Of a stretch of 64,000 bases of DNA, positions 8,559 through 26,486 are shown in pieces (the stretch's first letter is position 1; each line of letters begins with the position of its first letter). A program made the translations under genes and the position numbers. Source of the stretch: Escherichia coli (GTDB taxonomy: Bacteria; Pseudomonadota; Gammaproteobacteria; Enterobacterales; Enterobacteriaceae); assembly GCF_013122565.1 (NCBI RefSeq), contig NZ_CP053258.1; one strand, given 5' to 3'. Under the pieces are notes generated by a model. That model ran no database searches. It had not been told where the DNA came from and saw only the letters and a list, made by a program, of their open reading frames with translations.

Positions 8559-9209
8559 TCAGCGGCTGTCATTGCGCAGTCTGCGCTCCAGCTGCTGTTT
8601 GTCTTTTTTCACGCCACAGCGGGGATCGAGCTGTAACGCATGGTTGAGATGATTAAGGGCGGAAGCCGGATTGCTTTCACTCAGGACAGCGCCAATCGCT
8701 TTATGCAGACGCGCCCGTGACTGGTCCGGCATATCCAGACCGTCTGTCAGCTCCAGCGTCTGCAGCAACAGATCGGCATCAAAGCCGGTGGCGGCAAGCA
8801 TTGCGCTCTGCGCGGCGTCTGCCATTTCCTCTGCCAGCACGGTCTGCACGTTGCGGTTACCCAGCGGCATCACCCAGCCATGACGCAGGGCATGACGCCC
8901 GATCTCCAGCGCCCCGGCATAATCTCCGGCATCAATACGCCACAGCATCACGTACATCAGCACGTCATCCTGTTGAGCGCCTCCGGCAGCCAGGACACCC
9001 TCTGCCCAGGCGGCGTACTTCGGCAGCAGCTCCACCTTGATTTCCGCTTTTTTGACCGTGGACTGAACGCCCTTGAGACGGCGGCGGTCTTCCGCCAGTT
9101 GCAGCAGCATCAGGTCATAGCCCGATGCGTGGCGAACACTGCCGCCCTCGCGGGCGGCCTGTTCAGCCTGAACGCGCAGGCGATGCTGCCGTGCGGGACT
9201 CAGGCTCAT
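8559..9209 (-). CDS. Terminase small (endonuclease) subunit (P2 gpM-like)
   Basis: 216 aa; synteny between N and L. Confidence 0.8.
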   Translation of the reverse strand: MSLSPARQHRLRVQAEQAAREGGSVRHASGYDLMLLQLAEDRRRLKGVQSTVKKAEIKVELLPKYAAWAEGVLAAGGAQQDDVLMYVMLWRIDAGDYAGALEIGRHALRHGWVMPLGNRNVQTVLAEEMADAAQSAMLAATGFDADLLLQTLELTDGLDMPDQSRARLHKAIGAVLSESNPASALNHLNHALQLDPRCGVKKDKQQLERRLRNDSR

Positions 9210-11263: not shown

Positions 11264-13030
11264 ATGAACACCACACTGACACCCGCAGATCTCGATCCCC
11301 GTCGGCAGGCCATGCTGCTGTACTTTCAGGGATACCGCGTAGCCCGCATTGCTGAAATGCTGGGCGAGAAAGTTGCAACCGTTCACAGCTGGAAAAAACG
11401 CGACAAGTGGGGTGACTATGGGCCGCTGGATCAGATGCAGCTCACCACCGCCGCACGCTACTGCCAGCTCATCATGAAGGAGCACAAAGAAGGGAAAGAT
11501 TTCAAAGAGATTGACCTGCTGGCGCGCCAGTCTGAGCGCCACGCGCGGATCGGCAAGTTTAACAATGGCGGCAACGAATCCGACTTAAACCCTAACGTCG
11601 CCAACCGCAACAAAGGCCCACGCCGTCAGCCGGAAAAGAATGTTTTCACCGATGAGCAGATTGAGAAGCTGGAAGAAATCTTCCATTCCTCCATGTTCAA
11701 CTACCAGCGCCACTGGTGGGAAGCCGGAAAAACCAACCGCATCCGCAACCTGCTGAAGTCACGCCAGATCGGCGCGACCTTTTACTTTGCCCGTGAAGCC
11801 CTGATTGACGCCCTGCTGACCGGACGTAACCAGATTTTCCTTTCCGCCAGCAAGGCACAGGCCCACGTCTTTAAGCAGTACATCATCGACTTCGCCAAAG
11901 AAGTGGAGGTGGAGTTGAAAGGCGATCCGATGGTGCTTCCTAACGGGGCCACGCTTTACTTCCTCGGCACCAATGCCCGCACGGCCCAGAGTTATCACGG
12001 CAACCTGTATCTGGATGAATATTTCTGGATACCGAAATTCCAGGAGCTGCGCAAAGTGGCTTCCGGTATGGCTATTCACAAGAAATGGCGACAAACCTAT
12101 TTTTCCACGCCATCCAGCCTGACACACAGTGCTTATCCGTTCTGGTCCGGTGCGCTATTCAACCGTGGGCGCAACAAAGCCGATAAGGTGGACATCGACC
12201 TGTCCCACAGCAATCTGGCCCCCGGCCTGCTGTGCGCAGACGGGCAATACCGCCAGATTGTCACCGTGGAAGATGCAGTGCGCGGCGGATGTAACCTGTT
12301 CGACCTCGATCAGTTACGCATGGAGTACAGCCCGGACGAATACCAGAACCTGCTGATGTGCGAGTTTGTGGACGATCTCGCGTCTGTGTTCCCACTCAGC
12401 GAGCTGCAGGCGTGCATGGTGGACAGCTGGGAAGTCTGGACCGACTTTCATGCACTGGCACTGCGCCCATTTGGCTGGCGCGAAGTGTGGATCGGTTATG
12501 ACCCGGCGAAAGGTACGCAGAACGGCGACAGTGCCGGATGCGTGGTGGTGGCACCGCCAGCCGTGCCGGGCGGCAAGTTCCGCATTCTTGAGCGTTACCA
12601 GTGGCGCGGGATGGACTTTCGCGCCCAGGCTGACGCCATCAAAAAACTGACCGAACAGTACAACGTGACCTATATCGGCATCGACTCAACCGGCGTTGGT
12701 CACGGGGTTTATGAGAACGTGAAAGCGTTCTTTCCTGCCGTCCGGGAGTTTGTCTACAACCCCAACGTTAAAAACGCCCTGGTACTCAAGGCCTACGACA
12801 TTATCAGCCACCGCCGTCTGGAGTTTGACGCCGGGCACACCGACATTGCGCAGTCATTCATGGCAATCCGTCGCGCCACCACCGCCAGTGGCAACCGCCC
12901 GACCTATGAAGCCAGCCGCAGCGAAGAAGCCAGCCACGCCGATCTGGCCTGGGCAACGATGCACGCACTGTTTAACGAACCGCTGCAGGGCGAATCCGCC
13001 AATACCAGCAATATTGTGGAGATTTTTTGA
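11264..13030 (+). CDS. Terminase large (ATPase) subunit (P2 gpP-like)
   Basis: 588 aa; divergent from O as in P2. Confidence 0.9.
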   Translation: MNTTLTPADLDPRRQAMLLYFQGYRVARIAEMLGEKVATVHSWKKRDKWGDYGPLDQMQLTTAARYCQLIMKEHKEGKDFKEIDLLARQSERHARIGKFNNGGNESDLNPNVANRNKGPRRQPEKNVFTDEQIEKLEEIFHSSMFNYQRHWWEAGKTNRIRNLLKSRQIGATFYFAREALIDALLTGRNQIFLSASKAQAHVFKQYIIDFAKEVEVELKGDPMVLPNGATLYFLGTNARTAQSYHGNLYLDEYFWIPKFQELRKVASGMAIHKKWRQTYFSTPSSLTHSAYPFWSGALFNRGRNKADKVDIDLSHSNLAPGLLCADGQYRQIVTVEDAVRGGCNLFDLDQLRMEYSPDEYQNLLMCEFVDDLASVFPLSELQACMVDSWEVWTDFHALALRPFGWREVWIGYDPAKGTQNGDSAGCVVVAPPAVPGGKFRILERYQWRGMDFRAQADAIKKLTEQYNVTYIGIDSTGVGHGVYENVKAFFPAVREFVYNPNVKNALVLKAYDIISHRRLEFDAGHTDIAQSFMAIRRATTASGNRPTYEASRSEEASHADLAWATMHALFNEPLQGESANTSNIVEIF

Positions 13031-14064
13031 TGGGAAAGAGTAAGAAGAACCGAGCTGCGGCGACGAAACAGATCCAGCTTAAAAGTCAAACTACAGCCGA
13101 AGCATTCAGCTTCGGCGATCCCGTTCCTGTTCTGGACCGCCGAGAATTACTGGACTATGTGGAATGCGTACAGATGGACCGTTGGTATGAGCCGCCCGTC
13201 AGCTTTGACGGACTGGCGCGCACCTTCCGCGCTGCAGTGCATCACAGTTCCCCGATTGCAGTAAAGTGCAACATTCTGACCAGTACCTACATCCCTCACC
13301 CGCTGCTCAGCCAGCAGGCTTTTTCACGTTTTGTGCAGGACTATCTGGTATTTGGTAACGCCTACCTGGAGAAACGCACGAACCGATTCGGTGAAGTTAT
13401 CGCCCTTGAGCCTGTGCTGGCAAAATACACCCGACGCGGGTTAGACCTGGATACCTACTGGTTTGTGCAATACGGCATGACTACACAGCCGTATCAGTTC
13501 ACGAAAGGCAGCATTTTTCACCTGATGGAACCGGATATCAACCAAGAGATCTACGGCCTGCCCGGTTATCTTTCTGCCATTCCGTCAGCCCTGCTCAACG
13601 AGTCCGCCACGCTGTTCCGCCGCAAGTATTACATTAACGGCAGCCACGCAGGCTTCATCATGTACATGACCGACGCCGCGCAGAACCAGGAGGATGTAAA
13701 CAACCTCCGTAACGCGATGAAAAGCGCCAAAGGACCAGGCAACTTCCGTAACCTGTTTATGTACTCGCCGAACGGCAAAAAGGACGGGCTTCAGATCATC
13801 CCATTGTCTGAAGTCGCGGCAAAGGATGAGTTTCTGAATATCAAAAATGTTAGTCGCGATGACATGATGGCGGCACACCGCGTGCCGCCGCAAATGATGG
13901 GGATTATGCCTAATAATGTTGGGGGGTTTGGGGATGTGGAGAAAGCGAGTATGGTATTTGTGAGGAATGAATTAATTCCTCTACAAAGGCGTTTAGAAGA
14001 GCTTAATTTGTGGCTAGAAGAGGAAGCCATAAAATTCAAACCATACAATTTATCAGATAATTAG
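13027..14064 (+). CDS. Portal protein (P2 gpQ-like)
   Basis: 345 aa; ATGA overlap with P. Confidence 0.9.
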   Translation: MMGKSKKNRAAATKQIQLKSQTTAEAFSFGDPVPVLDRRELLDYVECVQMDRWYEPPVSFDGLARTFRAAVHHSSPIAVKCNILTSTYIPHPLLSQQAFSRFVQDYLVFGNAYLEKRTNRFGEVIALEPVLAKYTRRGLDLDTYWFVQYGMTTQPYQFTKGSIFHLMEPDINQEIYGLPGYLSAIPSALLNESATLFRRKYYINGSHAGFIMYMTDAAQNQEDVNNLRNAMKSAKGPGNFRNLFMYSPNGKKDGLQIIPLSEVAAKDEFLNIKNVSRDDMMAAHRVPPQMMGIMPNNVGGFGDVEKASMVFVRNELIPLQRRLEELNLWLEEEAIKFKPYNLSDN

Positions 14065-14070
14065 AATCAT

Positions 14071-14108
14071 GGCCCTAGTATATTATCATTTTCACTAGGG
14101 CTTTCTTT
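14071..14108. terminator. Hairpin between convergent portal and RT genes (bidirectional terminator candidate)
   Basis: ggccctagt ... actaggg stem followed by ctttctttc. Confidence 0.4.
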
Positions 14109-15869
14109 CTATATGCTGCATATTTTTTTATAATGTTCAAAAACATCTTTAAAAGTGTTGAGTATTATTTCAAAACCACTAAAATCAACTTTTCGTTTTT
14201 TATCCCTAACTACTTTCACAGAGAAAACATGTTTCCCATATTCAGTTTTTGAGTCCCCATCGTTCTTTTTGTTAAATTTTTTACCACCAAGAATAGTTGA
14301 TAATACATCATGAGTAAAAAGATCTTCCATCGCAGTCTGCTCACCAGTAGCACTTAAAGGCGTTAGAATGATATAGAGATTTTTAAAGACATGGATAAAT
14401 CTCATTTTTCTCATTTTATTGGTATCATCGGGGCAGCTCTTAACATTATTTTTAAGGAAATTCAAAATCTCATTAGAACCAGAATCGTTGTCCAATACCA
14501 TGATAACCGGGTGCTTAGGAATGCTTCCATAGTAGCTTGAATATTCATCCATATATCTTTCGATGAATTTTTTAAGATCTGCGCTACCTCCAGACATATT
14601 AATAAAATAACTTGACTTCTCATCAGATTTAAAAATATTCAAGTTGATATCATTTCCTTTACCGTCTGTGCTTTTCTTGAGCAACTCAGGAAATTTGGCA
14701 GAAAGTGAACGAATAGCTGATTTTAAATATACTCGATCAGTTTTGCCTTCTGTCAAGATTGTCGGGGAAGCATGTCCATGAAAAAACTTGTAGTAAATAA
14801 ATTTACTATATGCCTTCTCTCGTACATTCAGCTTTAACCTGTAGTTTTTTAATGTAATATGAATAGGCGCATATTTTTCAGGCTGTTTACTTATTTTATC
14901 TTGTATGTTATTAAATTTATCAATCTGGTCAATAAACCCAAATCTTCCCTCTAGTTTTTCGATACTCCCCACGACTAGCTTACCATCTTCATCAGGTAGC
15001 TTATATTCTCCCTTACTATAAAGTGAATGAGCTAATGCTCTTGTTTTATTCGAATATTTCCTATCAACGTTAACAAATCTATTTATAGTAAGTCCCGTAA
15101 CTTCTTGTCTCGTGGATTTGTACGAGATCCTTGTTTTAGCATCATTAATATCAAAACCAGCACGTTTTATTTCACTGACAAGAATGCTCCCCAAGACAAC
15201 CCCCTCAGGAAGAGATATTGCCAAATCGGTAGGAAATTCTTTTTTATTAGTTGAAAACGTGATGTCATCGGCATAACGACTATATGAACAACCTAAACTC
15301 TTTGCTAATTTAGCTAATCTAATATCCATAATGCTACAAATTAAGTTTGTTATCACTGGAGAACACGGGCTACCCTGAGGCAAACTTCCCTTATAGCATG
15401 CGGCTTTAGCTAAAGTAGTGGCGACAATCGGATTTAATAAGAAATCCCTATTGGATAGGAAGTACCCTCTCACTCGCCCAAAATTAAAGCTTTTGAAAAA
15501 ATCCTTAAGATCAATATTGAGTATTATATTTTTCCCACGATGTCTGAAAGCATTGGAAATTATTGACTTATTTCTTTCAAAACCAAAGGAGTAATTGTTT
15601 TTAATTTTTTTAATTTTGAAAGTTTCATCTCTACACTCCATTAAAAGATCGGCTATTCGTCTTTGGAGATCTTTCAAACTATCTTCTGGCGCAGAAATCA
15701 ATCTGACTCCCTTACCTTTTTTTGGAATAGAGAAATCTTTATACTGATTATCAGTACCAATTCTGTAAAGAATATTCGTTAAAAACACCAACTTAACATC
15801 TAGCAATTTTGCCAAGTCAGCACGAGATGCTGCGACTTTCAAAAGTAGTAATTTAGAAGTTGCGACCAT
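14109..15869 (-). CDS. ret: Retron reverse transcriptase with C-terminal TOPRIM domain (RT-TOPRIM fusion; consistent with retron-Ec67 / Retron-Eco2 RT)
   Basis: 586 aa; RT motifs [23 protein letters not shown] (res 199-202); TOPRIM-like TEGKTD (373-378) and VLDNDSG (458-464); strongly AT-rich. Confidence 0.9.
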
Positions 15870-15904
15870 AATTATATTTTATCGTAGAAGTTAGTAAGAG
15901 AGGA

Positions 15905-16040
15905 AGAACGCATGTAGGCACTCCTTCGCACAGCACAACGGCCCTATAGCGACGAAACAAGGATGTCAGGGATGCGATTCCACCTGCCATTAAAATCACT
16001 GGTTGTGATACACAACCAACAAATCTGCCTACATGCGCAT
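15905..16040 (-). ncRNA. msr-msd: Retron msr-msd-like non-coding RNA locus flanked by a1/a2 inverted repeats
   Basis: 12-bp inverted repeat cgcatgtaggca at 15909-15920 and 16026-16037 with about 105 bp between them; internal hairpin ggttgtg-tat-cacaacc; a2 lies 40 nt upstream of the RT start. Confidence 0.5.
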
Positions 16041-16108
16041 AAATGAAACTACCATTTCAACGTCTTCATTTCCAGTAATATATTTCAAATATCTACACTG
16101 AGCGCGCG

Positions 16109-16127
16109 CTCGTATCCCCGCCACGCC
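16109..16127 (-). other. Candidate cos cohesive-end site
   Basis: Minus-strand GGCGTGGCGGGGATACGAG; first 13 nt match the 186/P2 cohesive end as I recall it (GGCGTGGCGGGGA...). Confidence 0.4.
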
Positions 16128-16171
16128 TGCCCGCTTTATGTAGTGGTTTTCATGCAGGTGCATGATCTACG

Positions 16172-16196
16172 CAAAAGCCCGCCAGTTCTGGCGGGC
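16172..16196 (-). terminator. Rho-independent terminator ending the A/tum early transcript
   Basis: Stem gcccgccag/tggcgggc with T-tract on the minus strand. Confidence 0.55.
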
Positions 16197-16469
16197 CTTA
16201 GCAAAAACGATCCTCAAACGATCATGCAATCTCATGCAGCATAGACATGCACAGACGAGTAAAGCGAATCGGACCTTACGCAAGGTGAACTCCTCAGCGG
16301 GCATAATCAGTATGTCGGAAGATCTCTAAAAATAAATAATTCGGTTAACAGGTATGCTTACAAAAGCATATATTTGATTAAAAATCATGTAAGGGGGAGG
16401 ATCTCAAACTGAATCGCCACGGGTTTTACAAATTTCGATAGTCTCTCTAACGTTTCGGCTGAGGTCAAA

Positions 16470-16895
16470 ATGAAAAGCTTTTACGTATTAATTTTAATTC
16501 TGGTTGCAAGCTTTGTTAGCGTCCCAGTTCAGGCGGTAACAGCTAAAAACTATGAGAAAGGAACTAAAGCTCAACAGAAATCAATATCTTACCTTTCATG
16601 TGCATTCTATGGCAGTAGCACACAATTAGATCCTAGCTACACGGAGCAAGTACCTACAGCCGATATCAAGATATTACAGAAAGCAGCTTACCACGCTTAC
16701 AACGATGCGCTCTCATACTTTGGCTATGAGGAACCAGATCACGAACAACGCATAATTGATTATGCTGAATTTGTGGCGTCGCAAGAAGCTGTGTTATGGG
16801 ATAAGCCGGGAATGAATGGAAAGCAGGTAACACTAATTGCTCGTTCTCTCTACAATGAGAGTAACTGTAACTTGTTACTGGACTCAATTAAGTAG
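16470..16895 (+). CDS. AT-rich cargo gene: small secreted protein of unknown function
   Basis: 141 aa; signal peptide MKSFYVLILILVASFVSVPVQA; GAGG RBS; low GC. Confidence 0.7.
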   Translation: MKSFYVLILILVASFVSVPVQAVTAKNYEKGTKAQQKSISYLSCAFYGSSTQLDPSYTEQVPTADIKILQKAAYHAYNDALSYFGYEEPDHEQRIIDYAEFVASQEAVLWDKPGMNGKQVTLIARSLYNESNCNLLLDSIK

Positions 16896-17054
16896 GAAAA
16901 AGATGGTATTTTGCCCGTAGTTTCAACCTTAATCTCCGAACCTGTCGCAGAACGGGCGTTCACTCATCAAATAAACGCCACACCTAACGCCTCACTGTAC
17001 TCGTTGTTCAACCTTGCTGACGCCAGAACCAAGTTCAGACGCCAGCAACTTTTC

Positions 17055-17288
17055 TTAATGCAGCCAGCTGTCGTCTTCCCACACCTTCTGCATAATCTTC
17101 ATCACTTGTTTTCTTTCTTCGTCCAGTTGCAGTCCGGTCAGTTCCACACCGTTAGAGCTACCTTTGCGGATGCGAATTACCGTTTTGGGATACAGGGGGC
17201 GCAGATTGCGGTAAAGCTCGGATTCAAGGGCGTCCAGGGTAGACTGGCTAATCTTCTGCTCTTTATCGATCATTATTTCAATGCGCAT
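17055..17288 (-). CDS. DinI-family protein (Tum antirepressor C-terminal-domain-like)
   Basis: Start trimmed to MRIEIMIDKEQ... (GAGGTG RBS); pattern MRIE...LDALESEL...WEDDSW resembles DinI. Confidence 0.7.
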   Translation of the reverse strand: MRIEIMIDKEQKISQSTLDALESELYRNLRPLYPKTVIRIRKGSSNGVELTGLQLDEERKQVMKIMQKVWEDDSWLH

Positions 17289-17298
17289 AAAGGTCACC

Positions 17299-17487
17299 TC
17301 AGCTGATGACATCCATTGAGCGGTTGTATTCGTGGGTTCTGATTTTTGCCATGAGTTCATCAGTCAATTCAGAAACCCACTGCAGAGCCAGCCCCTTCTC
17401 TTCATCACTACACTCACTAGCCGCTACAAGCTTAAGAAAAAAATCAATGCGCTGGAGCTTCAAAGACTCCAAAAAATAGTCCTGCAT
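17299..17487 (-). CDS. Small protein upstream of DinI-like ORF (possible N-terminal part of a Tum-like antirepressor)
   Basis: 62 aa; directly downstream of a LexA box; separated from the DinI ORF by a frame change. Confidence 0.5.
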   Translation of the reverse strand: MQDYFLESLKLQRIDFFLKLVAASECSDEEKGLALQWVSELTDELMAKIRTHEYNRSMDVIS

Positions 17488-17529
17488 CTTTCCTCCTATG
17501 ACACCAAAGCAATACTGTATATATAACCA

Positions 17530-17545
17530 CTGTTTATATTTACAG
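17530..17545. promoter_or_regulatory. LexA box (SOS operator)
   Basis: CTGTttatatttACAG fits CTGT-N8-ACAG with AT-rich spacer; a second half-site tactgtatatata lies just upstream. Confidence 0.6.
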
Positions 17546-17639
17546 TATATAATAATCTTACTGATGTAAAACGTTTTTTTACGTTCATCAGCCTGAAATG
17601 CCTGGTATTATTAAGAGCACGAATTGTTAACCCGCGTAA

Positions 17640-20054
17640 TTAATACAGGTTCCGCCACTTATCATCTTCCTGCAAACGCTGGTTCCGATAGAAGATACGC
17701 AGGCCTGCTCCTGACGGAATACTGCCGCCGCGAAGGAGTAAATCGACCTCTTTCTCGCTGCCATCAAATCCTCTGGACTTCAGTTCATAGACGAGCTGCT
17801 GTCGCTGATGGTCTGTAATTCGCTGTTTGTAGTCTTTACGCCGTTTCGGTTTCACCAGGCGTAACCTTGCAGCCAGTTCCCGGCGCTCTTTTTTGCTCAT
17901 ACTGTGCAGGTATTCGTGCAACTCCTTGTCATCCATGCGGGTAATGTCCGTTCTGGTATCCCCATCAGCTGATTTGTCTTTCCCTTGTTGGTTCAAATTT
18001 TCAGCAAGGGGACAGTTATTGCCACGAGTCCAAGGGGCGCAAGCGCCCTGGTCGGCTACCGCCTCCTGAACGTCAACGGCTTTACGAACCATTTTCCACT
18101 TCACTGCATGAGTGCAGATCTTGCCCTCTGCAATGGGTGACCAGATGCCATAAATACGAATGCCGTGATCGCCATAGGCGGTCGGCTCTTCGTTAATTTC
18201 ATAAGCAGTTCTGATGAGGTGATATTTGCGGGGAACCAGTACGCCGCCCTGCTTCATGATGTAAGTGGCAAAACAACCAGCATCAGCAGCAGCCAGGATT
18301 GCATCAAGGCGCGGGTTATCCAGTACCGGCGCACCTGCTTTTTTGTCCCCCTGTTGCCTTGCCGCCTGACCAGCCAACAATCGCAGTTCACGGTAAGCCT
18401 GACGCCCCGGAATGCCAAAGAAGCGGAATTGCTGAACACGATGCAAAGACGCCCAGGCATTCACGTATTCAGCGTTATCACGCAGAGATTTACCCGTTTC
18501 CTTGCTGATCTCGCCAGCCAGACCACGCCCGTCAATGTTCTTACTGATGTATTTCGCGATGTAGCTTGTTGGCGTACCTTTGCGCGGGTTTATCAGCTCA
18601 GACTTAAAGCGTGGTCCCGTGTTATTACCCAGCTCCTCGCGGTCTTCACGAATGGCAAACTTACGCAACAAAGCAGTAATGGCTCGGCGATCTTTTTTGC
18701 GCATAAAACACAACAGGTGCCAGTGCACTGTACCGTCATGATGCGGCTCAGCCACCCGCACGCCATACCAGCGCAATCCGGCTTTGTGCATCGCTTTACG
18801 AAATGCAGCAAACATGCCGACCAGATAATCACTGCTTTGTCTTACCGTCGCGTTTGTCCAGGTCGGGTTTGGTCTGCCGTTATTTAGCGTGGAATGGAAA
18901 CGTGACGGACAGGTGATGGTGTAGAAAACGGCGCAGTCACCGCGCATTTCCGCGATAAGCTCCAGACCTTTAACACAGGCCATCATCTCATTGCGGCGAT
19001 GCGCAGGGTTGCTGCTGCTGGCGTTTACCACGTCTTCCATATCCAGCGTGTCGCCGTCTTCGTTCACCAGTTCATGAGAACGAAAAAACTCCAGCGACTT
19101 ACGGCGCTGCTCACGTTTATGCATCACGGCTTCATAGCTGACATAGGGAGATGCTTTTTTGCTGACCAGGCAGACAGCGCGCAACTGCTCTTCCCGCCAT
19201 TCGCAACGCATCTTCCATAATTTCCGATACCACCAGTCGGCGCACAACATACGCGCCAGCGAACCCGGAATGAGTTCATAGGGCACGGGTTTACGGCGGT
19301 TTCTTTTCCGGCGGAGTTGCTCAAACGCAGGTGGGATGACATCCAGTCGCAGGGTTTCTGCTGCCACCCTTTCCCATGTCTTGCGGATTTCTTCTGGCTT
19401 AACGTCATCGGTGGCATACAAATCGCCACAAGCTGCATCAAGGCACATGCTCATATGCGCAGCTACCAGGGTGGACAGGCGTTTCACCTGATCCTGACTC
19501 ATTTCAGGCAGGATCAGCAGGCCGTCCAGCCCTTCCTGGCTCGCCATAAAGCGAAAAGCAGTGGATAGCTGACTGTCGCGTACATGCTCCAGCCGTTCCA
19601 GACATGGCTTAATCGTCTCACGCAAATAGCGGGAATAAGCCTTTGGCCTGCCCAGGCTGCTGAAGTATTCAATACGTTGCATCAGCGGCTTGCTGATATG
19701 GGAAGGCTGGGCGTTAACGTCCGCCAGAATGACCATGTCTGGATTAAAACGCTGCTGCTCATGCGCCAGCTTTGCCCGGCTAATGAGCTTATCCTGCTCT
19801 ATTTCGCGTTGGACAGGATCACGGGATTCATTAAAGAAATAACGCTCCCAGACCTGATCACTCAGAGCCTCGCGGCGCAGTTGTTCCTGCTCGTTATCGG
19901 CAGCGTACAGAGTGATCAGGTTTGAAAGCGCAGAAACCGGCGCAACTTCCGCCGGGTCCAGATAAGGGTTAATGGCCTTTTTCGGGCTGTTCCATGAGAA
20001 TGCTGCGGCGACCTCGTTAAAGCCGCTGCAGTTGTTCATATCATCATGGCTCAT
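17640..20054 (-). CDS. Replication initiation protein (P2 gpA-like rolling-circle nickase)
   Basis: 804 aa; position downstream of early genes; stop/start overlap with the methylase gene. Confidence 0.9.
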
Positions 20055-20908
20055 GCACGCACTCCGTACATGGCAGAACTATCCACGCCACGCGAAGGAT
20101 CAAATCCCACCCAGCAGCGCGCCCCGGAAACAGCAATGATTTCTGTTGCAGATTTACTCTCGCCAGCCGACACGCCGATGCTGCGTTTTGCCTTGATGTA
20201 GTGGTGAGTGAAATTGCGATACAGCGAACGAATCAGGGATGTGTCACTGTTAGAAACAATGACCGGATGTCCTTCAGATGCTCGATGTTCAAGAACGGAT
20301 GCCAGGTGATACTGGTCATCTTCAGTGAAACCATCAGTGTGATAGCCGGAAAACGTACCGTCATACGGCGGATCGCAATACACCACATCCCCCGCCTTCA
20401 ACATCGCCAGCGTTTCATCAAAGCTGGCGCAGATAAACGTTGCCCGCTGGGCTTTTTCTGCAAATGCGCGAATTTCTTTTTCAGGGAAATACGGATTTTT
20501 ATAATTACCGTAGGGAATGTTGAAATGCCCGCTCTTGTTATAGCGACATAAACCACGGTAACCGTGACGATTGAGATACAGGAAATATACCGCTTTCATG
20601 AAATCAGTAATTTCAGTGGAGTAATTAAACTCCTGCCTTATGTTGTAATAAGCCACCTCCCTGTTTGCGATCTCAAATAAAACTCTGGCGCGAGATATAA
20701 ACGATTCACAATCAGCGGCAACCTTTTTATAGAGGTTGATTAAATCAAGATTAATATCCGCAACCAGATAGCTTGGATAATCCGTCTCCATCATCACAGC
20801 ACAGGAACCCGCGAAAGGTTCAACCAGTCGCGGGCCAGCAGGAAGGTGTTTTTTCAGTTCGGACATAATTGCGGTTTTATTTCCCGCCCATTTCAGGATG
20901 GTGCTCAT
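20051..20908 (-). CDS. DNA adenine methyltransferase (Dam family, orphan)
   Basis: Start trimmed to [11 protein letters not shown]; motif I-like FAGSCAV and motif IV DPPY (VYCDPPYDG). Confidence 0.85.
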
Positions 20909-21132
20909 ACAGCACCTCCGTTGTAATGTTTGCCTTTCAGCTCTGCGATTTCCTGACAGGTAATGCAAAGCTGCACTCCCGGAATGGCGCGGCGTCGTGC
21001 TGGCGGAATTGGCGCTTCACATTCAATGCAAAGTACGCGTGACACGCCCGGTGATTTGGCACGGGCTGCACGGATATGGCGCTGGCGTTCTTCTTCAACG
21101 CGCTGCTGTACGAGATCCATTGCATCAGCCAT
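20905..21132 (-). CDS. DksA/TraR-family C4 zinc-finger protein
   Basis: 75 aa; CIECEAPIPPARRRAIPGVQLCITCQ (CxxC-N17-CxxC). Confidence 0.75.
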   Translation of the reverse strand: MADAMDLVQQRVEEERQRHIRAARAKSPGVSRVLCIECEAPIPPARRRAIPGVQLCITCQEIAELKGKHYNGGAV

Positions 21133-23054: not shown

Positions 23055-23651
23055 ATGTCAACATCAAAGTACCCAAGTGAGATCAAAATAAATCCCAATA
23101 AAGGTGGTAAGGCTGCGATTGAGCGATTAGTCGAAGCCTATGGCTTTACGACACGACAGGCTTTAGCTGATCACTTGGAAGTATCAAAAAGCACACTAGC
23201 GAACAGGTATTTGCGGGATACATTTCCTGCTGACTGGATAATCCAATGTGCTCTTGAAACAGGAACCTCCCTCAAATGGTTAACTACCGGACAAGGCCTT
23301 AAGCAAAGCTCGCTGACAGCAGCTACAGAAGAGCTTGTTAAGTTTCGCCTTGCCGCAGGCAAAATGATTGAAGACGGTTCATATGTCTTCGATTCATCAT
23401 TTCTTCCTGCAAACCTTTCATCACCAATTGTTATTCAGGATGGACTCGTCACATACATTTGTGATCAAAAATTTTCTGAAGTACTTGATGGAAACTGGTT
23501 AATCAATATCGACGGAACCTATTCCATTCGAAAAATCACAAGGCTTCCTAAAGGAATGATTAAAATTACAACAGCAGAGAATAGCTTTGAATGTGCATTT
23601 TCTGATATTGAAGTGGTTGCTTGTATAAGAAGTACAATAGTCTCGAATTAA
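23055..23651 (+). CDS. cI: CI-like immunity repressor (186 CI type)
   Basis: 198 aa; position between switch region and int; N-terminal HTH-like segment. Confidence 0.7.
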   Translation: MSTSKYPSEIKINPNKGGKAAIERLVEAYGFTTRQALADHLEVSKSTLANRYLRDTFPADWIIQCALETGTSLKWLTTGQGLKQSSLTAATEELVKFRLAAGKMIEDGSYVFDSSFLPANLSSPIVIQDGLVTYICDQKFSEVLDGNWLINIDGTYSIRKITRLPKGMIKITTAENSFECAFSDIEVVACIRSTIVSN

Positions 23652-23671: not shown

Positions 23672-25348
23672 ATGAATTCATTTGCCATCGTTATACTCTT
23701 ATTAGCATTTCTCGCCCCTGTTCTAGCTGTAATATTATTTAAACAAAGTAAAAAACACAAAGCGGCTATAGATAACCTGACAGCTAACAACATAGCCCTT
23801 TCTAACCAACTGATTGAAAATCAAGAAAAACTAGCACAGACCGTACGAGAATTATCAGATCTTGAAGGGCGAGCAGCACCATTGTGGCAATACGAAGAAT
23901 TGCACAGCGCAGTAATGGATGCAGAGAATAAGATAAAAAATGCGGACTCAATAGCCAAGCAAAAAATAGATGAAGCCCAAATTAAGGCGGCTAAAACAGT
24001 AAACGAAGCAAATTATCAAGCTCAGATAACAATAAGCAACGCTAATAGCGAAGCTATAGCAATCACCAAAGACGCTCGCGATGCACGCCTGAAAGCCAAA
24101 GAACGTCTTGATAATGCTAATAATAAAGCAAATGAGCTAATCTCAAATGCTAATGACAATGCAGTAAAAATTATTTCTGATGCAGAAGAAAGAGCAAAGG
24201 AGATTGCTGGTTCAGCATATGAAGCTAAAGAGTTTGCAGAAAAATATGAAGCAGTTGCAAAATCAATGAAAAATAAAATTGAAGGTTATGGTGATGAATG
24301 GATCATCCCTAACCGTAGTGTACTTGATGAGCTGGCAGAAAATTATGAATTTACAGATGCAGGCAAGGAATTACAAAAAGCCAGAGAGTTAACCAAATCA
24401 TTAATAAAAACTAATAAAGCTGCTTCGTGTGATTATGTTGAGCAAAACAGGCGTAATACTGCCATAAACTTTGTTTTGGATGCCTTCAATGGAAGAGTTG
24501 ACAGTATTTTATCAAAAGTCAAACACAACAATTTTGGAAAACTTTCCCAAGAAATAAAAGATGCATTTCAACTAGTAAATTACAATGGCTCTGCCTTTAG
24601 GTCCGCAAAAATAAGTGACATCTATCTTCAGGCAAGACTCAACGAGCTAAAATGGGGTGTAGCAGTTAATGAAATTATGCTCGAAGAAAAAGAAGAGCAA
24701 AGAAGGATTAAAGAACAGCTTCGTGAAGAGGAAAGAGCTCGTAGAGAATATGAAAAAGCGATAAAAGAAGCTGAAAAAGAAGAAAAAGCTATTCAGCAAG
24801 CTATAAATAAAGCAACGAAAGAACTTATGCTTGCAAATGAAGAACAACGCTTAGCTTTAGAGCAAAAAATAGCTGAACTACAGTTAAAATATGAAGAAGC
24901 TGAAGCTAAAAATCAACGAGCTATTTCTATGGCTCAACAAACCAGATCAGGCCACGTCTATATCATTAGTAATATTGGTTCATTTGGCGAAGATGTATAT
25001 AAAATTGGAATGACACGCCGCCTTGAACCACTTGATCGTGTTCGTGAACTCGGAGATGCTAGTGTTCCTTTTTCGTTCGATGTTCATGCGATGATTTATA
25101 GTGATGATGCACCATCATTAGAAAACCATCTGCATAAAGTTTTCAACGAAAAGCAGGTCAATAAAATTAACTCACGAAAAGAGTTTTTTAACGTAAATTT
25201 AAAAGAAATCAAATCAGTTATTGAAGACATGAACATCAACGCCCACTGGACAATGTTTGCAGAGGCGAAAGAATATAGAGAGTCTCTAGCTATTGAGCAG
25301 GAGCGCAAAGCAGCCACTTCCGCCAACGATGAACTACATGTTGCTTAG
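23672..25348 (+). CDS. AT-rich cargo gene: membrane-anchored coiled-coil protein with C-terminal T5orf172 (GIY-YIG-like) domain; DUF4041-type architecture; defense candidate
   Basis: 558 aa; N-terminal TM helix, long K/E/A-rich coiled coils, C-terminal GHVYIISNIGSFGEDVYKIGMTRRLEPLDRVRELGDASVPFSFDV; co-directional with cI and int. Confidence 0.85.
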   Translation: MNSFAIVILLLAFLAPVLAVILFKQSKKHKAAIDNLTANNIALSNQLIENQEKLAQTVRELSDLEGRAAPLWQYEELHSAVMDAENKIKNADSIAKQKIDEAQIKAAKTVNEANYQAQITISNANSEAIAITKDARDARLKAKERLDNANNKANELISNANDNAVKIISDAEERAKEIAGSAYEAKEFAEKYEAVAKSMKNKIEGYGDEWIIPNRSVLDELAENYEFTDAGKELQKARELTKSLIKTNKAASCDYVEQNRRNTAINFVLDAFNGRVDSILSKVKHNNFGKLSQEIKDAFQLVNYNGSAFRSAKISDIYLQARLNELKWGVAVNEIMLEEKEEQRRIKEQLREEERARREYEKAIKEAEKEEKAIQQAINKATKELMLANEEQRLALEQKIAELQLKYEEAEAKNQRAISMAQQTRSGHVYIISNIGSFGEDVYKIGMTRRLEPLDRVRELGDASVPFSFDVHAMIYSDDAPSLENHLHKVFNEKQVNKINSRKEFFNVNLKEIKSVIEDMNINAHWTMFAEAKEYRESLAIEQERKAATSANDELHVA

Positions 25349-25430: not shown

Positions 25431-26486
25431 ATGGCAGTACGAAAACTAACCACAGGGAAATGGCTTTGCGAATGTTACCCCGCCGGACGTAGCGGACGCC
25501 GTGTGCGTAAACAATTCGCCACCAAAGGCGAAGCACTGGCCTTCGAGCGATACACCATGGGGGAAATAGAAGCAAAGCCCTGGCTGGGCGAATCAGTGGA
25601 TCGTCGGACACTGAAAGATATGGTTGAGCTATGGTTCAAATTACATGGCAAATCTCTTACTGCCGGACAGCATGTCTACAACAAGCTGCTGTTGATGGTT
25701 GACGCCTTGGGAAATCCCCTTGCAACTGATCTCACCTCAAAAATGTTTGCTCACTATCGCGATAAACGCCTTACTGGTGAAATCTACTTCAGTGAAAAAT
25801 GGAAGAAAGGAGCAAGCCCAGTTACTGTTAACCTGGAGCAAAGCCATCTAAGCAGCGTTTTCAGAGAACTTTCCCGCCTGGGTGAATGGACACTTCCAAA
25901 CCCATTAGAGAAGATGCGCAAATTCACTATCGCAGAAAAGGAAATGGCATGGCTTACACATGAGCAGATTATCGAATTACTGTCTGACTGCAAACGTCAG
26001 AACCCAATTCTGGCACTGGTGGTAAAAATATGTCTAAGTACAGGCGCACGTTGGCGAGAAGCAATCAATCTTACCCGCTCACAGGTCACCAAGTACCGAA
26101 TCACCTTTGTGAGAACGAAGGGGAAGAAAAACAGAAGCATCCCTATCAGTAAAGAGCTTTATGAAGAGATCATGGCGCTCGATGGGTTCAATTTCTTCAC
26201 AGACTGCTATTTTCAATTTTTATCCGTGATGGAAAAAACGTCTATCGTTCTCCCTCGCGGTCAACTGACACACGTTCTGCGCCATACGTTTGCGGCGCAC
26301 TTCATGATGTCGGGTGGAAACATCTTGGCCTTACAAAAAATTCTCGGACACCACGATATAAAAATGACTATGCGTTATGCGCATCTGGCACCGGATCATT
26401 TGGAAACGGCGCTCCGTTTCAATCCACTGGCAACGTTACCAAATGGCGACAAAGTGGCGGCAGCGGTTGGCATTACCCCGCAATAA
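25431..26486 (+). CDS. int: Tyrosine site-specific integrase (P2/186-like)
   Basis: 351 aa; C-terminal catalytic region ...LRHTFAAHFMMSGGNILALQKILGHHDIKMTMRYAHL (R, H-x-x-R, Y). Confidence 0.9.
   Translation: MAVRKLTTGKWLCECYPAGRSGRRVRKQFATKGEALAFERYTMGEIEAKPWLGESVDRRTLKDMVELWFKLHGKSLTAGQHVYNKLLLMVDALGNPLATDLTSKMFAHYRDKRLTGEIYFSEKWKKGASPVTVNLEQSHLSSVFRELSRLGEWTLPNPLEKMRKFTIAEKEMAWLTHEQIIELLSDCKRQNPILALVVKICLSTGARWREAINLTRSQVTKYRITFVRTKGKKNRSIPISKELYEEIMALDGFNFFTDCYFQFLSVMEKTSIVLPRGQLTHVLRHTFAAHFMMSGGNILALQKILGHHDIKMTMRYAHLAPDHLETALRFNPLATLPNGDKVAAAVGITPQ

Follow-up and report, generated by a model that had tools for sequence, protein, structure and literature searches.

A very probable Fels-2-type cos site adjoining a diverged Ec67-family retron in an Escherichia coli prophage

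The segment at 16102-16252 of the window, which denotes here the whole 64,000-nt stretch of Escherichia coli contig NZ_CP053258.1 that was analysed, is with high confidence the cos site of a P2/186-like prophage (Peduoviridae, Fels-2-type) residing in the E. coli chromosome. This assignment draws on sequence identities, limits of conservation and gene identities that were observed directly, and DNA beyond the prophage is E. coli chromosome at about 99% identity. The site and its relation to the neighbouring retron are already known, because the arrangement has been described since 1996, with Dodd and Egan (1996) cited for the retron placement and Rousset et al. (2022) describing the surrounding hotspot. 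The main value of the present analysis is one of annotation, as it fixes the virion map of this prophage, running from the left end, retron and portal gene through to the tum gene, the secreted-protein gene and the right end.

The cohesive end and the conserved island around it

The features of the site are as follows, with distances counted from the predicted cut.

16102-16252, minus strand: full extent of the conserved cos island (151 bp; -125 to +26), flanked by unrelated cargo DNA
16102-16156, minus strand: cos core, 55 bp, -29 to +7 about the 19-mer, the block common to P2 and P4
16109-16127, minus strand: 19-nt cohesive end, with nicks predicted between 16128 and 16127 (minus strand) and between 16108 and 16109 (plus strand) and 5' overhangs
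16152-16156, minus strand: proximal TGCAT at -29, at the edge of the 55-bp core
16159-16163, plus strand: inverted TGCAT copy at -36, at the edge of the 55-bp core
16171-16202, minus strand: GC-rich hairpin (GCCCGCCAG/CTGGCGGGC) followed by TTTT, from an inverted repeat search and folding
16247-16251, 16234-16238 and 16224-16228, minus strand: three TGCAT repeats at -124, -111 and -101, respectively, a putative terminase recognition array

The minus strand from 16127 to 16109 reads GGCGTGGCGGGGATACGAG (19 nt; CTCGTATCCCCGCCACGCC on the plus strand at 16109-16127), so that the sequence cited for this strand in the initial annotation is present at exactly the coordinates given there. The same annotation had equated its first 13 nt with the cohesive end of P2 and 186. 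This is correct for 186, whose annotated cohesive end GGCGTGGCGGGGAAAGCAT (NC_001317, 1-19) agrees at all 13 leading bases and at 15 of 19 overall, but it misses by one base for P2, whose annotated end GGCGAGGCGGGGAAAGCAC (NC_001895, 1-19) agrees at 12 of the 13 leading bases and at 14 of 19 overall, as P4 does over the whole length (14/19). The sequence fits the P2-family type GGCG(A/T)GGCGGGG..., a GC-rich cohesive end of 19 nt, and its leading 13-mer occurs once in the 64-kb window, where 0.10 occurrences would be expected by chance even with one mismatch permitted. The cos of phage SEN8 agrees at 19/19 positions; positions 1-19 of the SEN8 record are annotated as 'putative cos site', and the genome announcement prints 'cos site (ggcgtggcggggatacgag)', which is the same 19-mer as that read from 16127 to 16109 (PMC5427200). 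Moreover, the records of SEN8 and Erwinia phage EtG both stop at the base equivalent to 16128, one before the 19-mer. A literature search for an experimentally mapped terminus of the ATACGAG overhang variant returned annotation-based assignments only (SEN8 and related variants).

In the window the 19-mer is followed by CGCGCGC, and the same succession is found unchanged in Fels-2, an E. coli Ec67-family prophage, E. coli 64EVA and Klebsiella phage Kp4846-2. The resulting 26-mer (19-mer plus CGCGCGC) is identical in at least 120 IMG/VR contigs. Several of these contigs are only about 11 kb long and were considered as P4-like satellites; this was rejected, as a gpA homologue lies upstream wherever the right flank is long enough, and they are fragments of P2-like phages. 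No satellite-like locus appeared among the listed IMG/VR loci with an identical cos. In the E. coli 19KM2415N prophage (L011), the overhang is one base off (GGCGTGGCGGGGATACGAT) and is followed by TGCGCGC, a change at the junction of overhang and GCGCGC, where positions also vary between the 186/P2 type and the Fels-2 type.

The ends of P2, P4, 186 and SEN8 were circularised and then aligned to the window. The uninterrupted identity block of P2 and P4 in this alignment extends from -29 to +7 (55 bp), a size that agrees with the '55-bp core' credited to Ziermann and Calendar (1990) in citing papers. When scored over a frame shifted by one base (-28 to +8, 55 bp), the core of the window is identical to that of P2 at 42/55 positions, P4 at 42/55, 186 at 43/55 and SEN8 at 53/55, and the alignment with P2 and 186 that the initial annotation had proposed as a check thus reveals similarity across the core, beyond the 13-mer.

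The conserved region is considerably longer than this core. Identity to the window was computed position by position across 112 distinct IMG/VR segments among the matches listed, each with the identical 26-mer, so that positions 1-26 were set by the search itself; it is about 0.2-0.4 outside the island and 0.8-0.98 from 16252 (-125) inward. On the other side, identity in the same segments is back to background at 16101/16100, 1-2 bases past GCGCGC. Ziermann and Calendar are said to have found that about 125 bp is required for cos function. Over the 151 bp, identity amounts to 149/151 with the E. coli Ec67-family locus (L009), 149-150/151 with other E. coli prophages, 142/151 with Fels-2, 140/151 with SEN8, 112/151 with 186 and 100/151 with P2. 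A BLAST comparison of 15870-16470 with about 50,000 phage genomes matched only ~16094-16252 (best E 2e-65), and the matches, in 92-104 records, all belong to P2-like phages (Klebsiella, Escherichia, Salmonella, Yersinia, Erwinia, Ralstonia and Aeromonas).

A repeat-bearing recognition region, a feature defined empirically in this analysis rather than from a published definition, is present on the right-end side of the cut. TGCAT occurs at -124, -111, -101 and -29 in the window and at the same positions in P2, 186 and P4; SEN8 has three of the four, the -101 copy being absent. The five copies within 133 bp compare with 0.26 expected, and one other, unrelated region of the window is as dense. 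PSP3 and Ralstonia RSA1 have a TGCAT layout equivalent to that of P2, 186 and P4, and across these five phages the positions are kept though the intervening DNA is not conserved. In phiCTX and Smp131, position -29 reads TGCAG and several copies of the CGCAG/GCAGG type lie upstream; the phiCTX record itself annotates cos-proximal repeats and an IHF site. Conservation marks the TGCAT repeats as putative terminase binding sites, and their variation across phages suggests a recognition code that may co-vary with the terminase.

Within the island, the hairpin at 16171-16202 folds at -27.6 kcal/mol with its flanks and is kept in Fels-2-type islands. It is probably a terminator that would keep transcription from the tum side out of cos and the retron. 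An open reading frame at 16162-16329 (plus strand), which overlaps the island and is without family matches, was taken as spurious.

The retron and the cargo slots on either side of cos

The surrounding genes and elements are listed below from left to right.

8559-9209, minus strand: small terminase subunit (gpM homologue; phrog_74, 1.4e-88), presumed reader of the cos island
11264-13030, plus strand: large terminase subunit (gpP homologue; phrog_3746, 2e-160)
13027-14064, plus strand: portal protein (gpQ / 186 W homologue; phrog_68, 1.7e-175)
14071-14102: hairpin (9-bp stem, -18.1 kcal/mol) where the portal and RT genes converge, with a T-rich run after it on the plus strand
14109-15869, minus strand: RT-Toprim protein, 586 aa, Ec67 family, type I-C (PADLOC, NCBIfam)
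15909-16037, minus strand: retron msr/msd ncRNA gene, with a1/a2 inverted repeats at its ends and Ec67-family homology
16038-16101, minus strand: retron leader/promoter region, the cargo junction meeting the cos core at ~16101
16470-16895, plus strand: 141-aa protein with an N-terminal signal peptide, right-end cargo between tum and cos (phrog_7437, 4e-99)
17055-17360, minus strand: Tum/DinI-like gene of the right arm (phrog_189, 1.2e-30; weak NCBIfam DinI match)
17640-20054: gpA, right of the tum-like gene
20051-20968, minus strand: dam-type DNA methyltransferase, adjoining gpA (phrog_56, 2.5e-121)
23055-23651: CI-like repressor
23672-25348, plus strand: DUF4041 protein, 558 aa, between the CI-like repressor and the integrase (PADLOC PD-Lambda-1, 3e-120)
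25431-26486: integrase

Both terminase subunits and the portal protein are encoded by the same element as cos, and capsid and scaffold genes also lie to the left of cos, between the small and the large terminase genes. To the right of cos follow the genes for the 141-aa protein, the Tum/DinI-like protein, gpA, the dam-type methylase, CII, CI, the PD-Lambda-1-like protein and the integrase. The order of gpA, tum-like gene, cos, portal and large terminase is that of P2, 186, Fels-2 and SEN8. E. coli homologues of the gene at 17055-17360 are annotated as DinI-like, and the prophage has a tum/LexA module like that of 186; an open reading frame overlapping it (16911-17306, plus strand) has no family matches and was taken as spurious. 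A dam-type methylase in the original Ec67-carrying element is attributed to Hsu et al. (1990) by a citing paper.

Two sequence hallmarks of an Ec67-family retron were found between cos and the portal gene, namely a reverse transcriptase (RT) with a C-terminal Toprim nuclease domain and, just upstream, an msr/msd region whose a1/a2 repeats (15909-15920 and 16026-16037) form a perfect inverted repeat of 12 nt. The protein matches PADLOC RT-Toprim_I-C over its full length (6.4e-213) and NCBIfam retron_Ec67_fus with a score of 685.9 bits (curated cutoff, 450). An Rfam 15 scan of 13000-18000 at E<=1 returned no family, the msr/msd region at 15909-16037 included; Rfam models appear not to cover retron ncRNAs of the Ec67-family type.

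Compared with the E. coli Ec67-family locus, the RT protein is 71% identical in amino acids, and nucleotide identity is 69% for the cassette, 87% for the ncRNA, 69% for the RT gene and 66% for the leader. The leader and ncRNA align to L009 without change in length, and in both the distance between the 19-mer's first base and the start of the a2 repeat is 90-91 nt. Judged by these identities, the classical Ec67 arrangement is represented in the window by a diverged allele, because the cassettes of the two prophages share only 69% nucleotide identity while the adjacent cos islands are 99% identical. Among 5,426 complete RefSeq E. coli genomes, none gave a close DNA match to the retron (14109-16101), yet an identical RT protein is recorded in NCBI under the Ec67-family name in 119 public contigs from E. 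coli, Shigella, Citrobacter and Enterobacter.

The limits of the retron cassette were placed by comparison with prophages that carry other cargo. In E. coli prophages 95-98% identical to the window on both flanks, homology is lost at 14048-14051 and returns at 16097-16101, and the slot holds a RES-family NAD+ phosphorylase or hypothetical proteins. The cassette limits of ~14050 and ~16101 fit the retron placement of Dodd and Egan. The hairpin at 14071-14102 is likely to be the terminator of the portal/terminase operon as well as the left boundary of the cassette, and cargo variants each bring their own hairpin after the portal stop codon. A simple terminator scan flagged neither this hairpin nor that at 16171-16202, both of which came from the repeat search and folding.

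The interval between cos and portal behaves as a cargo slot, because its length ranges from 184 to 3455 bp, with differing contents, in 89 IMG/VR loci with identical cos among the matches listed. The shortest distance, 184 bp, corresponds to an empty slot as in P2 and 186, and the window has 2044 bp. The view in the initial annotation that this is a variable cargo region beside cos is well supported by this range of lengths and by the hotspot literature discussed below. Homologues of the RT occupy the slot in eight IMG/VR loci among the matches listed (closest identity 55%), in one of which the portal gene was not reached.

Unrelated, shorter RT genes with 30-37% identity fill the slot in Klebsiella phage 4LV2017 (3225-5208) and in other P2-like phages (loci L109, L082, L063, L094, L022 and L103). 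Since unrelated RTs occur at one slot, several retron or RT types have been captured independently at the cos-portal position.

A second variable slot, at 16253-16983, lies on the right-end side of cos. E. coli 64EVA and 19KM share its gene for the 141-aa signal-peptide protein, which is missing from the Ec67-family locus L009, where homology runs from 16984 on. The DUF4041/PD-Lambda-1 protein represents a second defence cargo of the prophage, located in an integrase-proximal hotspot.

Packaging model and alternative readings

In the model proposed here, binding, nick positions and packaging are carried over by homology. After excision and replication, the terminase (small subunit at 8559-9209, large subunit at 11264-13030) would bind the right-end side of the island, that is, the side bearing TGCAT at -124, -111, -101 and -29. 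Two nicks 19 nt apart, predicted between 16128 and 16127 on the minus strand and between 16108 and 16109 on the plus strand, would then leave 5' cohesive ends GGCGTGGCGGGGATACGAG. This cut geometry follows the annotation of 186 and the P2-family literature, in which the ends are described as '5'-extruding cohesive ends', and the predicted nick positions and 19-nt 5' overhangs take P2, 186 and P4 as models. The cut DNA would then pass through the portal (13027-14064).

The linear virion chromosome would then begin, at its left end, with the retron promoter/leader ~30-90 nt in, followed by msr/msd, RT-Toprim and the convergent portal-terminase operon, with the portal gene ~2 kb from that end; its right end would carry gpA, tum and, as the last gene, that for the secreted protein. 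The initial annotation had likewise put the retron at the extreme virion end between cos and the portal gene (Q), and the secreted-protein gene and tum module at the opposite end. The first placement accords with the positions of msr/msd (15909-16037), RT-Toprim (14109-15869) and portal (13027-14064), and the second with the genes at 16470-16895 and 17055-17360 to the right of cos. The retron would be passenger cargo in a replaceable cassette (~14050 to ~16101) that travels with the phage.

Three other readings of the site were weighed against this model. The prophage may be defective or non-inducible, in which case the site would be a genuine cos by descent that is never cut and the retron would effectively be a chromosomal gene. 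A cryptic state is common among P2-like prophages in E. coli, and the window opens in the tail-fibre region, with the tail sheath/tube genes, ogr and attR lying outside it. This reading is nevertheless quite unlikely, as the visible phage genes (small and large terminase, portal, capsid, scaffold, gpA, CI, CII and integrase) are all full length, and the identity of the island with other E. coli prophages (149-150/151) and with the isolated phage SEN8 (140/151) argues for continued selection.

If the prophage is taken to possess a functional cos, its true nicks could still be offset from the 19-nt stagger, giving an overhang of another length or position in the Fels-2-type variant. The 3' third of the 19-mer is unlike the experimentally mapped ends of P2, 186 and P4, and 20-nt or slightly different ends have been reported within the family for AP3 and phiCTX; however, positions 1-13 and the GCGCGC beside the overhang are conserved and keep the register of P2, 186 and P4, and no gaps are needed to align the island around the cut, which makes such an offset very unlikely. 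The possibility that a GC-rich 13-mer matches here by chance and plays no part in packaging is practically negligible and was refuted by BLAST homology, core alignment and island conservation across 112 segments: although at least one match arises in 10 of 100 shuffles when one mismatch is permitted, the actual 13-mer match is exact, sits within a 151-bp stretch homologous to about 100 P2-like phages (E down to 2e-65), occupies the canonical genome position and belongs to a 26-mer that recurs identically in at least 120 viral contigs. A functional cos cut with the 19-nt stagger is therefore the reading retained here.

Significance and comparison with known systems

The Ec67-family retron of this prophage would be packaged into virions and spread with them as cargo of the phage, and would not be an autonomous mobile element. 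The locus contributes one diverged retron allele to the cos-proximal defence hotspot of P2-like phages, which is already well documented. The analysis also delimits a 151-bp packaging signal that could be used for cosmids or transducing particles with Fels-2/SEN8-type helpers. The edges of the island are sharp to the nucleotide, as variability sets in 1-2 bases past GCGCGC on one side and exactly beyond the outermost TGCAT at -125 on the other. These sharp edges, together with 99% identity in the island against 69% in the cassette, might mean that the cos island or its DNA ends serve as a recombination anchor for swaps of defence cassettes in P2-like phages, and that the in-register TGCAT array shared with P4 is a small-terminase recognition code that satellites must copy. 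This proposal is speculative and rather unlikely; purifying selection on cos combined with homologous recombination of the ordinary kind in the portal and tum genes on either side could equally explain the same data.

Among known phages, SEN8 and Fels-2 (Felsduovirus) share with the window an identical 19-mer followed by CGCGCGC and a cos flanked by the tum/DinI side and by the portal gene. They differ in their cos-portal cargo, which consists of two ORFs including an HNH-like gene in SEN8 and of a 565-aa hypothetical protein in Fels-2, whereas the window has a retron; their host is Salmonella and that of the window E. coli. SEN8 was isolated as virions, and its cos was assigned by annotation. 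The phages with experimentally defined 19-nt 5' ends, 186, P2 and P4, resemble the window in having GCGCGC after the overhang, terminase and portal genes as neighbours, and the same genome position. The differences concern overhang positions 14-19, which read TACGAG in the window, AAGCAT in 186 and AAGCAC in P2 and P4, as well as the cos-portal interval, which is empty and ~170 bp long in P2 and 186, compared with 2044 bp in the window.

The retron arrangement itself has close precedents. Dodd and Egan (1996; Virology 219:115) are cited as having placed retrons Ec67 and Ec86 between cos and the portal terminator of a 186-related prophage, and, as in the window, an Ec67-family RT-Toprim retron there replaces the DNA between cos and the post-portal terminator. 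The insertion of Ec67 between cos and a DNA packaging gene has since been restated (PMC7826664). At the E. coli Ec67-family locus L009, too, a homologous retron lies equally far from cos and the early region includes a dam-type methylase; the window differs from Ec67-family loci in its diverged retron allele. More generally, the cosL-gpQ interval has already been termed a hotspot (PMC5694545), and the cos-proximal gpA-gpQ hotspot was surveyed in 18,150 E. coli loci, retrons included (Rousset et al. 2022; PMC9122126); the cos-proximal defence hotspot of P2-like phages also features in a preprint (bioRxiv 10.64898/2026.02.27.708500). With variable cargo flanking cos on either side within the gpA-gpQ interval, the window represents one more instance of this hotspot and shows no substantive difference from it.
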